This document shows positions 31,357 to 32,010 of a stretch of DNA of 64,000 bases, one piece after another. This DNA comes from Escherichia coli (GTDB lineage Bacteria; Pseudomonadota; Gammaproteobacteria; Enterobacterales; Enterobacteriaceae). Each line of letters starts with the position of its first letter. The first letter of the stretch is position 1. The translations under genes and the position numbers were made by a program. The DNA is taken from the NCBI RefSeq assembly GCF_048403405.1, contig NZ_CP183129.1; one strand, written 5' to 3'. Under the pieces are notes generated by a model. It worked only from the letters and a program-made list of their open reading frames with translations, had not been told where the DNA came from and ran no database searches.

Positions 31357-31411
31357 ATTTAATATCACCTAAAGAGAATTTGGTTAGCTCAAACTGTTGT
31401 GTGGATTTTCT

Positions 31412-31663
31412 GTGGTAGCGGATCCTACCACGACTCTGCAGGTTAAAAACACTGGCAGTCTGAGTGTTAATCGGTATGGATGGATTAACATCTGGATGGC
31501 TATTTTAGGTCAATTCTTCACCCGATTTCCACTTTTTTTTGAATCGTGTCTCATTCTGTTAAAAACGTGGCTGGAAATTTTTCCTGACAATGCTGGCATT
31601 CTGCGTATTTATCTTTTGCAATTTTCTGCCATTGTGGGGTATAAAACGCGGCGCGCGGCTTAA
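31412..31663 (+). CDS. yqgD: Small ORF at the position of K-12 yqgD (uncharacterised, 83 aa from the GTG at 31412)
   Basis: Position and length match my recollection of yqgD; overlaps the metK regulatory region; coding status doubtful. Confidence 0.4.
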
Positions 31664-31875
31664 ATAAAAAGCACACGACGTTTCTTTCGTGTTGCCACTT
31701 CCAGCCGGGTTGAAATCAGAGTTTTGGCTTGTGGGTTCGTCTTAACAGGCGGCCGTGGAGGTGATACGAAATAATGAACCGTTGTCTGCTGCTTAACCTG
31801 TCTCACCGTTCTGGTGAAGATTCGTTCCCCGCACTCTGCATCTCTGCTTTGCATACCTGCCGATGTTATACCCAT
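31660..31875 (-). CDS. yqgC: Small ORF at the position of K-12 yqgC (uncharacterised, 71 aa)
   Basis: 71-aa ORF; position and length match recollection of yqgC. Confidence 0.45.
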
Positions 31876-32010
31876 CTCGGCGCTTCTCAGGATTCAAGAG
31901 CTGGTTACAGTTACTGAGGACTGAACAAGGGCGCTCTTGTAAAAACAAGAGTTTTCTCGTGGTTTCGCCGAACTGTCACACTTACGTTCGGTTATGTGCT
32001 TAATAATGTT

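Follow-up and report, generated by a model that had tools for sequence, protein, structure and literature searches.

Control of polyamine genes by premature transcription termination that depends on an upstream ORF (uORF) is exemplified by speFL-speF, a system that the leader of speA resembles in part. The MetJ operators of the Escherichia coli met regulon are arrays of tandem 8-bp boxes (AGACGTCT), all in one register, located beside the -10 element of a met-regulon promoter and conserved in Enterobacteriaceae. metK is among the loci with known metboxes that were used for the MetJ-box weight matrix, and of 122 Enterobacteriales genomes analyzed in published work, 119 have metK metboxes; knock-down of metJ up-regulates the metK promoter. 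In mdtU-mdtJI, a further case of uORF-dependent premature termination, a conserved, translated small ORF resides in the long leader of a polyamine-pathway gene (Adams et al. 2021). Among the small ORFs annotated between metK and speA in strain K-12, YqgG was found by initiation-complex ribosome profiling and the tagged protein was detected (Weaver et al. 2019); yqgC showed no ribosome density and its SPA-tagged product was undetectable (Weaver et al.).

Here we analyze the metK-yqgB intergenic region, which extends from the first base past the metK start codon to the last base ahead of yqgB (31357-32010), within a 64,000-nucleotide stretch of E. coli DNA (hereafter, the window) that is reversed relative to K-12 (Table 1). 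The region is present at ≥99% identity in 5414 of the 5426 complete E. coli genomes. The position and orientation of yqgD and yqgC between metK and yqgB-speA are the same as in K-12, with no structural difference; the YqgD ORF differs from that of K-12 (b2941) by a single amino acid (R38 here, L38 in K-12), and the YqgC (b2940) and YqgG ORFs are identical to their K-12 counterparts. yqgG is annotated in both K-12 and PGAP genomes, and the PGAP strain annotations in RefSeq keep yqgD and leave out yqgC. In the comparative analysis, the distant genera were reached through ORF calls homologous to YqgD or YqgC, which biases the sample toward genomes with some ORF called at the locus; a scan of the genome collection with YqgB, in which single-protein patterns are exact, covered Escherichia loci only. 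An Rfam search of window positions 30000-33000 at E ≤ 1 returned nothing relevant, its sole match being a chance one to a Brucella sRNA outside the region.

Table 1. Genes, ORFs and predicted regulatory elements in and around the metK-yqgB intergenic region (window coordinates)
Feature	Position	Strand	Description
metK (methionine adenosyltransferase)	30202-31356	-	left boundary; ORF list and RefSeq annotation
metK 5' UTR (predicted)	31357-31495	-	~139 nt; start site deduced from the -10 element; conserved blocks within
yqgD ORF	31412-31663	+	83 codons, GTG start; 88 codons if TTG at 31397
MetJ operator (predicted)	31470-31501	.	four tandem 8-bp metbox-like repeats adjoining the metK -10
metK promoter (predicted)	31502-31531	-	-35 TGGAAA 31531-31526, 18-nt spacer, -10 TAAAAT 31507-31502; promoter scan, sigma-70-like
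yqgG-yqgB-speA leader promoter	31616-31653	+	-35 TTGCAA 31616-31621, 18-nt spacer, -10 TATAAA 31640-31645, start G31653
yqgC ORF	31660-31875	-	71 codons, ATG start
Leader 5' hairpin	31671-31695	+	GCACACGA...TCGTGTTGC, near the leader 5' end
Candidate anti-Shine-Dalgarno	31689-31709	+	invariant CGTGTTGCCACTTCCAGCCGGG; predicted pairing with the yqgG ribosome-binding site
yqgG	31774-31917	+	47 aa; antisense inside yqgC; b4784
Terminator-like hairpin	31933-31960	+	GCTCTTGT-AAAA-ACAAGAGT plus TTTTCTCG; terminator scan
Second leader hairpin	31967-31992	+	GCCGAAC...GTTCGGT, upstream of yqgB
yqgB	32011-32142	+	43-aa small gene, right boundary; Pfam PF11036, NCBIfam NF033844
speA	starts 32151	+	downstream of yqgB

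A sequence-only reading of this DNA had placed two small ORFs, yqgD and yqgC, in the divergent region between metK and yqgB/speA, had expected the metK promoter and its regulator binding sites to lie beneath them, and had doubted that either is a gene. Our analysis bears this out: both ORFs are present at the respective positions, the metK promoter and the predicted metboxes are located inside yqgD on the opposite strand, and the pN/pS values of the two ORFs have confidence intervals that span 1. It is highly probable, in our view, that the span yields neither a YqgD nor a YqgC protein and is a back-to-back divergent control region for metK and speA. Nearly all of this picture has already been published.

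On the leftward side, an A8 tract on the minus strand (31533-31540) lies just upstream of the predicted metK promoter, and the -10 element with its flanks (31500-31509) is invariant in 14 sequences. The scan for MetJ-box repeats that the sequence-only reading had proposed yielded a tandem array next to this promoter; the boxes, which on the minus strand read AGCCATCC AGATGTTA ATCCATCC ATACCGAT, directly adjoin the predicted -10 and cover the metK start site deduced from it. No mapped 5' end of metK was found in the literature. The array matches four copies of the consensus at 18 of 32 positions, and only two positions in the 64-kb window, the operator included, score as high; the second, at 40944, falls within a coding sequence, and we regard it as a chance match. 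The four boxes share one register, which is conserved across genera, and the sequence of the block is nearly invariant across nine genera (the first box is GGACGTCT in Enterobacter hormaechei). In these respects, the site resembles the MetJ operators of the met regulon; it differs in that each box taken singly is a poor match to the consensus (4-5 of 8 positions), and the boxes are predicted here from sequence.

On the rightward side, yqgG, which runs opposite to yqgC, is a genuine gene. Each of the 18 sequences compared has an intact copy encoding 44-49 aa, with an invariant start codon and an invariant, strong Shine-Dalgarno sequence (GGAGGTGA, 31757-31764). The encoded protein matches Pfam PF23505 and contains an invariant C-terminal motif, RC[YS][TP]H[LF]GASQDSRAG, in these 18 sequences, which represent at least seven genera; the codons of the motif hardly vary at any of their three positions. 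The pN/pS of yqgG is 0.42 (CI 0.25-0.66), compared with 1.11 and 1.14 in the control frames. The ORF is the same as the one described in K-12, and the present analysis adds its conservation across these genera. yqgG, antisense to yqgC, was absent from the sequence-only reading.

yqgC overlaps, in antisense, the speA leader and the first two thirds of yqgG. The ORF is cut at differing sites, from codon 9 to codon 55, in Salmonella, Citrobacter, Enterobacter, Klebsiella and Kosakonia, leaving 54 aa in Salmonella, 48 in C. koseri, 55 in C. freundii, 52 in C. rodentium and 43 in Kosakonia, with stops at codon 9 in Enterobacter hormaechei and codon 15 in Klebsiella; in E. fergusonii, the stop is at codon 64. 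The pN/pS of 1.07 (bootstrap CI 0.75-1.72) gives no indication of purifying selection on the ORF, and the value is 1.38 where yqgC is antisense to yqgG and 0.89 in the remainder. YqgC does match a curated family, Pfam PF17430 (E = 2e-39), over residues 1-51. These residues correspond exactly to the stretch (31723-31875) that is antisense to yqgG, from its Shine-Dalgarno sequence and start codon into the coding sequence, and we therefore attribute both the family match and the conserved N-terminus to conservation of the opposite, yqgG strand. The sole conserved part of yqgC is this antisense image of yqgG. We judge yqgC not to be protein-coding. A review lists a 'potential SOS box' near yqgC; inspection by eye found no good match to CTGT-N8-ACAG near this ORF, and published transcriptomics after DNA damage showed no induction of yqgC or yqgD.

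The yqgC strand might instead produce a functional cis-antisense RNA that pairs with the speA leader and yqgG mRNA and ends at 31692-31673, just before the metK promoter. The minus strand of the leader 5' hairpin is followed by a T run at this site and gives a terminator-like score in the terminator scan, the A-rich counterpart of the T run is conserved on the plus strand, and from E. coli RNA-seq data ExcludonFinder reports yqgG and yqgC as divergent transcripts that overlap. However, such an excludon call is near-automatic for two overlapping annotated genes, the promoter scan detected no minus-strand promoter-like site upstream of 31875, and the hairpin is equally well explained as the 5' stem-loop of the plus-strand leader. 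We consider an antisense RNA unlikely.

For yqgD, neither the reading frame nor the start and stop are conserved at the orthologous position. In-frame stops occur in two of the seven Escherichia lineages, Escherichia sp. MOD1-EC7003 (codon 45) and Escherichia sp. E1V33 (codon 44), as well as in C. freundii; frameshifted alleles are present within E. coli and Shigella. The GTG start is replaced with AGG, AAA, GGG or TTG (the latter in Klebsiella) in most non-Escherichia genera, and the C-terminus is reframed by a 1-nt deletion in E. fergusonii and most genera outside Escherichia. As a result, an invariant 23-nt block, GGTATAAAACGCGGCGCGCGGCT (31638-31660), reads GYKTRRAA in E. coli and in Klebsiella, which keeps the E. 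coli reading, and GIKRGARL in E. fergusonii, Salmonella, Citrobacter and Enterobacter, that is, one DNA sequence in two frames. The pN/pS of yqgD is 0.93 (bootstrap CI 0.64-1.46), versus 1.00 and 0.80 in its two other frames; for the same species pairs, the values are 0.024 for metK (first 200 codons) and 0.030 for speA. The total divergence of the region, about 0.17, is half the value seen at synonymous sites of the flanking genes (0.34-0.37), pointing to non-coding constraint. The frame-conservation check proposed in the sequence-only reading shows the yqgD and yqgC frames broken in relatives, and clear translation combined with purifying selection on both ORFs, which that reading had named as the finding that would speak against it, was not observed. 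Codon-position periodicity of substitutions was uninformative in this respect because it was flat not only for yqgD and yqgC but equally for the positive controls, yqgG and yqgB.

Searches for a YqgD family gave a similar picture. No match was found in Pfam and NCBIfam at E ≤ 1, and the K-12 product name, 'DUF2684 domain-containing protein YqgD', corresponds to no entry of the Pfam-A copy searched. When 1.84 billion representatives were searched exhaustively, only 29 clusters, 22-122 aa in length, were recovered; 14 of these were aligned (17 sequences including the query and two earlier matches), and all contain the core encoded by the operator and promoter DNA, with no sign of a homolog away from the syntenic locus. 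The sequence before the yqgD GTG holds no Shine-Dalgarno motif. We found no ribosome-profiling, tagging or proteomic data on yqgD in the papers searched, which mention it in expression tables only.

These observations have to be weighed against the view that yqgD encodes a real small hydrophobic protein that is young or under weak constraint and is translated weakly or only under special conditions, from DNA that doubles as metK and speA control DNA. The plus-strand transcript would then start inside the metK 5' UTR or early coding region. The frame is indeed open in most genera, with a yqgD-equivalent frame of at least 79 codons in Salmonella, C. koseri, C. rodentium, Enterobacter hormaechei, Klebsiella michiganensis and Kosakonia, and the other frames of the same 202 nt contain 2-7 stops versus none in the yqgD frame. 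Striking at first, this openness failed as evidence of coding: under random placement of the observed substitutions, about 5.2 lineages with stops would be expected, compared with the three observed, a deficit that is not significant (P = 0.146), and when the substitutions of each lineage are placed at random, the probability that the frame stays open is 0.24-0.89 per lineage. This deficit nonetheless leans toward retention of the frame. The persistence of the frame in relatives is compatible with shared ancestry and chance, and its stop-free length is in itself unremarkable. PGAP annotates yqgD in every one of 12 E. coli genomes drawn from across the ranking, and dual constraint would lower synonymous change and so raise pN/pS; however, the pN/pS of yqgD is the same as in the out-of-frame controls. 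A weak plus-strand promoter-like site (31350-31379) could serve such a transcript, but read on the minus strand it is the metK start codon with its ribosome-binding site, which gives its conservation another cause. Together with the natural stops in two Escherichia species and C. freundii, the unconserved start, the C-terminal block read in two frames, and the lack of a Shine-Dalgarno sequence and a curated family, this makes a YqgD protein quite improbable. yqgD could possibly be a young Escherichia-specific peptide under weak or no constraint. On the comparative evidence, from which its non-translation is deduced, we judge yqgD not to be protein-coding.

That yqgD and yqgC are both real conserved genes, the missing signal reflecting the low power of short ORFs with wide bootstrap intervals, is hardly credible despite the Pfam family of yqgC, given that the shorter yqgG (47 aa) and yqgB (43 aa) are intact in every genus, with pN/pS of 0.42 and 0.64 in the same alignments, so that power suffices for constraint of that strength, and given the experimental non-detection of YqgC, the truncation of yqgC at varying points and the two frames in which the yqgD block is read.

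Apart from its role upstream of metK, the region is equally the promoter and ~500-nt leader of speA, an aspect absent from the sequence-only reading. The hexamers of the leader promoter can be read directly from the sequence and are followed by a G+C-rich discriminator; GGTATAAAACGC and CGCGCGGCT of this promoter do not vary among 14 sequences. Adams et al. used a speA 5' UTR construct whose 5' end (primer JW10222, ...GCGCGGCTTAAATAAAAAGC) corresponds to 31653. Downstream of this start, the speA leader contains yqgG as a conserved small ORF that is translated, and yqgB is intact in all genera compared. yqgB-speA has been listed among candidate uORF-regulated loci. In published data, Rho-dependent termination places a 3' end 57 nt inside speA (K-12 coordinate 3085854), and a further 3' end maps close to where yqgG starts (K-12 coordinate 3086295); no 3' end has been reported at the hairpin and U tract at 31933-31960.

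Several elements of the leader RNA are conserved. Across eight species, the 5' hairpin is paired in 63 of 64 cells, with one A-U to G-C change. The terminator-like hairpin begins 16 nt past the yqgG stop and shows compensatory changes at two of eight pairs; the second leader hairpin, with seven pairs, likewise has two with compensatory changes. Jointly, these two hairpins are 96.6% paired, versus 32-49% in slid controls. From the RNAalifold consensus and the E. coli minimum-energy fold, in both of which 31689-31709 pairs with 31756-31770, we infer a candidate anti-Shine-Dalgarno pairing that may sequester the yqgG ribosome-binding site; the z-score is only -1.78, and covariation is not seen because both sides are invariant. 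A trp-type attenuator was also considered and rejected: E. coli and E. albertii alone can pair 31897-31903 perfectly with the 5' arm of the terminator hairpin (31933-31939), whereas this alternative pairing has mismatches elsewhere and does not covary with the terminator stem.

The speA leader can be likened to mdtU-mdtJI in that a conserved, translated small ORF lies in the long leader of a polyamine-pathway gene (Adams et al. 2021); the likeness is drawn from sequence and documented termination, and a ligand, ribosome stalling and a coupling of termination to the translation of yqgG or yqgB are putative for speA. We tentatively suggest, as a possibility that we hold to be less than even, that the leader is an uncharacterized cis-regulatory device in which yqgG translation sets transcript flow into yqgB-speA, perhaps in response to a polyamine-pathway metabolite. 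Such a device would fit the near-invariant yqgG motif codons, the sequestrable ribosome-binding site and the location of the yqgG stop within a few nucleotides of the terminator-like hairpin.

In the divergent control region that we favor, the sigma-70 promoter on the minus strand would drive metK leftward, the transcript beginning with a 5' UTR of about 139 nt. MetJ with S-adenosylmethionine, bound to the four boxes (31501-31470), would block RNA polymerase because the boxes adjoin the -10 and cover the predicted start site. Rightward, the plus-strand promoter starting at 31653 would make the ~500-nt speA leader, which would comprise, in order, the 5' hairpin, the candidate anti-Shine-Dalgarno, yqgG, the two conserved hairpins, one of them terminator-like, and yqgB. 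yqgD would be a chance open frame over the metK 5' UTR, operator and promoter in antisense and over the speA-leader promoter in sense, the conserved YqgD residues being translations of these regulatory DNA elements; yqgC would be an antisense frame of the leader and yqgG. Both names go back to the first K-12 annotation and then spread by homology.

The consequences are mainly a matter of annotation hygiene. The K-12 reference record still lists both yqgD and yqgC under protein accessions, and yqgD has been copied by homology into thousands of E. coli genomes as a 'DUF2684 domain-containing protein', a name that matches no family in the Pfam copy searched. Phantom entries of this kind inflate tallies of proteins of unknown function and mask the DNA that controls two central pathways, the synthesis of S-adenosylmethionine (metK) and of polyamines (speA). 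The comparative evidence would justify marking yqgD and yqgC as dubious. As a subject for research, only the conserved, yqgG-bearing speA leader is of value, with its putative regulatory role; if the leader does act as such a device, yqgC and yqgD would be mere shadows of the device and of the promoters.

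The interval 31357-32010 is exactly the metK-yqgB intergenic region; the window is oriented opposite to K-12 (K-12 coordinate = 3118062 - window coordinate). The sequence-only reading had placed two doubtful small ORFs, yqgD-like and yqgC-like, in this divergent region, and this observation is confirmed, with both ORFs located and matching b2941 and b2940, respectively. A third small ORF, yqgG, was absent from that reading. The 1-kb region was found at no less than 99% identity in 5414 of the 5426 complete E. coli genomes, and PGAP annotations of RefSeq strains include yqgD, yqgG and yqgB and lack yqgC. 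The window MetK starts with MAKHFFTSE, whereas K-12 and the 16 other sequences in the comparison all have MAKHLFTSE; the change, L5F at codon 5 (31342-31344), is strain- or lineage-specific.

Features of the metK-speA region (window coordinates)
Feature	Position	Strand	Remark
metK	30202-31356	-	
metK -10 TAAAAT	31507-31502	-	
metK -35 TGGAAA	31531-31526	-	A8 tract upstream
Four tandem metbox-like octamers	31501-31470		directly downstream of metK -10; 18/32 matches to (AGACGTCT)x4
Conserved block	31449-31512		holds minus-strand metK promoter elements and metboxes
yqgD ORF, 83 codons, GTG start	31412-31663	+	1 residue off K-12 YqgD (b2941)
speA-leader -35 TTGCAA	31616-31621	+	
Conserved block	31638-31660	+	-10 TATAAA (31640-31645) and G+C-rich discriminator
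yqgC ORF, 71 codons	31660-31875	-	identical to K-12 YqgC (b2940)
5' hairpin	31671-31695	+	retained in 63/64 cells
Invariant segment CGTGTTGCCACTTCCAGCCGGG	31689-31709	+	predicted pairing with yqgG ribosome-binding site (31756-31770)
yqgG, 47 aa (b4784)	31774-31917	+	antisense inside yqgC; annotated
Terminator-like hairpin and U tract	31933-31952	+	
Second hairpin	31967-31992	+	
yqgB	32011-32142	+	
speA	from 32151	+	

For comparison, five non-coli Escherichia lineages were taken from a genome-collection scan with YqgB, and farther genera were reached via called ORFs with homology to YqgD or YqgC (contigs of E. fergusonii, Salmonella, Citrobacter koseri, C. freundii, C. rodentium, Enterobacter hormaechei, Klebsiella michiganensis and Kosakonia); because loci were found through such calls, the sample is biased to genomes with some ORF called at the locus. 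In all these relatives, metK and speA are divergent, with 851-920 bp between the extracted points, and the entire region between them is alignable. Insertions specific to single lineages occur in the speA leader: C. rodentium carries one of about 64 nt directly after the leader start site (aligned to window 31661), so that the ORF called as 'yqgD' there reaches 130 aa; in K. michiganensis, about 50 nt are inserted behind the candidate anti-Shine-Dalgarno segment (aligned to 31712), and a 48-nt in-frame extension in Kosakonia brings YqgB to 59 aa (aligned to 32129). A 270-bp contig labelled Streptobacillus notomytis (LJRV01000460.1) encodes a sequence 98% identical to the E. coli yqgB ORF in its extended, 48-residue form; the assembly is almost certainly contaminated with E. 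coli DNA.

The doubts raised about both ORFs were borne out, for yqgC by its varied truncation, its pN/pS and published non-detection, and for yqgD by its pN/pS, in-frame stops, start loss and a block read in two frames. The interpretation overall is supported, and we consider it quite likely that the joint reading, covering both ORFs and the regulatory nature of the DNA, is correct.

The intact yqgC frame is limited to Escherichia, with E. fergusonii already stopping at codon 64. Beyond it, the end differs by genus (Salmonella, 54 aa; three Citrobacter species, 48, 55 and 52 aa; Kosakonia, 43 aa), and stops occur at codon 9 in Enterobacter hormaechei and codon 15 in Klebsiella. With eight species pairs pooled, yqgC has a pN/pS of 1.07 (bootstrap CI 0.75-1.72), which rises to 1.38 where it overlaps yqgG, above both other frames, as expected for the antisense reading of a constrained gene. 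The YqgC family PF17430 spans only residues 1-51 (window 31723-31875), which is the reverse complement of the yqgG coding sequence together with its start codon and Shine-Dalgarno sequence; for instance, 11 residues of YqgC result from reading GGCGGCCGTGGAGGTGATACGAAATAATGAACC in antisense. In the study of Weaver et al., yqgC showed no ribosome density, whether or not the cells were treated, and chromosomally SPA-tagged YqgC was undetectable, whereas YqgG was detected. Thus, yqgC can almost certainly be dismissed as a gene.

The yqgG frame is intact (44-49 aa) in 18 of 18 sequences, and its motif RC[YS][TP]H[LF]GASQDSRAG is conserved to third codon positions. In its 3' half (31855-31905), a 17-residue coding stretch containing rare arginine codons (CGA and AGA/AGG/CGG) is nearly invariant in seven genera, third positions included, which suggests constraint beyond the peptide; RNA structure, ribosome behaviour at particular codons or an opposite-strand element could be the cause.

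For yqgD, pN/pS is 0.93 (CI 0.64-1.46) in the indel-free part, 31433-31636 (other frames, 1.00 and 0.80), and 0.88 in the poorly conserved half, 31514-31636, compared to 0.95 and 0.91 in the other frames. The same species pairs gave 0.42 for yqgG (CI 0.25-0.66; control frames 1.11 and 1.14), 0.64 for yqgB, 0.024 for metK and 0.030 for speA; constraint is detectable on the neighbouring ORFs despite their short length. The codon-position test was flat in all four small ORFs, positive controls included, and is uninformative. In-frame stops interrupt yqgD in Escherichia sp. MOD1-EC7003 (codon 45), Escherichia sp. E1V33 (codon 44) and C. freundii; non-start codons take the place of the initial GTG in most non-Escherichia genera; and the C-terminus is reframed by a 1-nt deletion from E. 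fergusonii outward (Klebsiella retains the E. coli reading), frameshifted alleles being seen among E. coli and Shigella entries too. When 1.84 billion cluster representatives were searched exhaustively with HMMER, only 29 clusters of homologues (22-122 aa) emerged, and 17 aligned sequences (14 of these clusters, the query and two earlier hits) have only four short islands in common: SLSVNxYGWINIWxAILG, FPxFF(E/D), EIFPD and a C-terminal block. The detail that we take as decisive is that the invariant DNA GGTATAAAACGCGGCGCGCGGCT reads GYKTRRAA in E. coli and Klebsiella and GIKRGARL in E. fergusonii, Salmonella, Citrobacter and Enterobacter, which indicates conservation of the DNA rather than the peptide. 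There was no match to yqgD in Pfam or NCBIfam, although the K-12 product name cites 'DUF2684', and no Shine-Dalgarno sequence precedes the GTG in the window.

The only point in favour of yqgD is the openness of its frame, at least 79 codons in most genera, with 2-7 stops in other frames. When the observed substitutions of each lineage were re-placed randomly on the variable columns of a stop-free ancestor, 5.2 lineages with a stop were expected and 3 observed (P(3 or fewer) = 0.146), so that, on this T-rich strand (34-39% T), openness is compatible with inheritance from an ancestor open by chance. On the sequence comparisons, yqgD is very probably not a gene.

The ORF spans the metK 5' UTR, operator and promoter (antisense), an 85-bp spacer and the speA-leader promoter (sense). 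Total divergence in the region is about 0.17, half of the metK/speA synonymous divergence (0.34-0.37), which points to non-coding constraint. The expectation that the metK promoter and regulator sites lie here held: -10 and -35 elements were found and, by a scan for MetJ operator repeats (metboxes), four metbox-like octamers; the first metbox in Enterobacter hormaechei is GGACGTCT. Transcription of metK would start at about 31495, giving a 5' UTR of 139 nt. The metbox score is equalled at a single further site in the 64 kb, 40944-40975, which lies inside coding sequence, in the opening codons of an ORF (MENKSARAKVQAFGG...), and was judged a chance match. According to published work, 119 of 122 Enterobacteriales genomes have metboxes at metK, and metJ knock-down de-represses the metK promoter. 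A palindrome in the spacer, GGAAATTTTTCC (31573-31584), is kept or nearly so in Escherichia, C. koseri, Enterobacter, Klebsiella and Kosakonia; it may bind a regulator.

The 5' end of the speA 5' UTR construct of Adams et al. (primer ...GCGCGGCTTAAATAAAAAGC) falls at 31653, 7 nt past the speA-leader -10. These authors described a yqgG-yqgB-speAB transcript, with Rho-dependent termination taking place within the leader or early in speA; their Term-seq 3' ends lie at K-12 3086295 and 3085854. The former (minus strand in K-12), abundant and labelled 'antisense yqgC', corresponds to window ~31767, on the leader strand and exactly where yqgG has its ribosome-binding site and start codon, and implies a short 5' leader fragment of about 115 nt, produced by termination or processing. 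Pairing of this binding site with CGTGTTGCCACTTCCAGCCGGG appears in both the RNAalifold and the E. coli minimum-energy folds, with a z-score of only -1.78 and no covariation, as both sides are invariant. The same segment competes with the 5' hairpin for the TCGTGT bases, and in the folding model this could act as a structural switch. The two downstream hairpins are jointly 96.6% paired, with four compensatory pairs (slid controls, 32-49%). A trp-style antiterminator pairing, tested in the alignment, was not conserved, and no family in Rfam was matched.

The finding is ordinary and mostly known already: the non-expression of yqgC, the existence of yqgG, and the leader with its start site and premature termination are published, and MetJ control of metK is textbook knowledge. 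Added here, from sequence comparison, are the case against yqgD, above all the two-frame reading of the invariant promoter block, and a description of the conserved architecture of the speA leader. This leader is reminiscent of uORF-controlled polyamine loci, for example mdtU-mdtJI, and, by analogy, may be controlled by uORF translation or a ligand.
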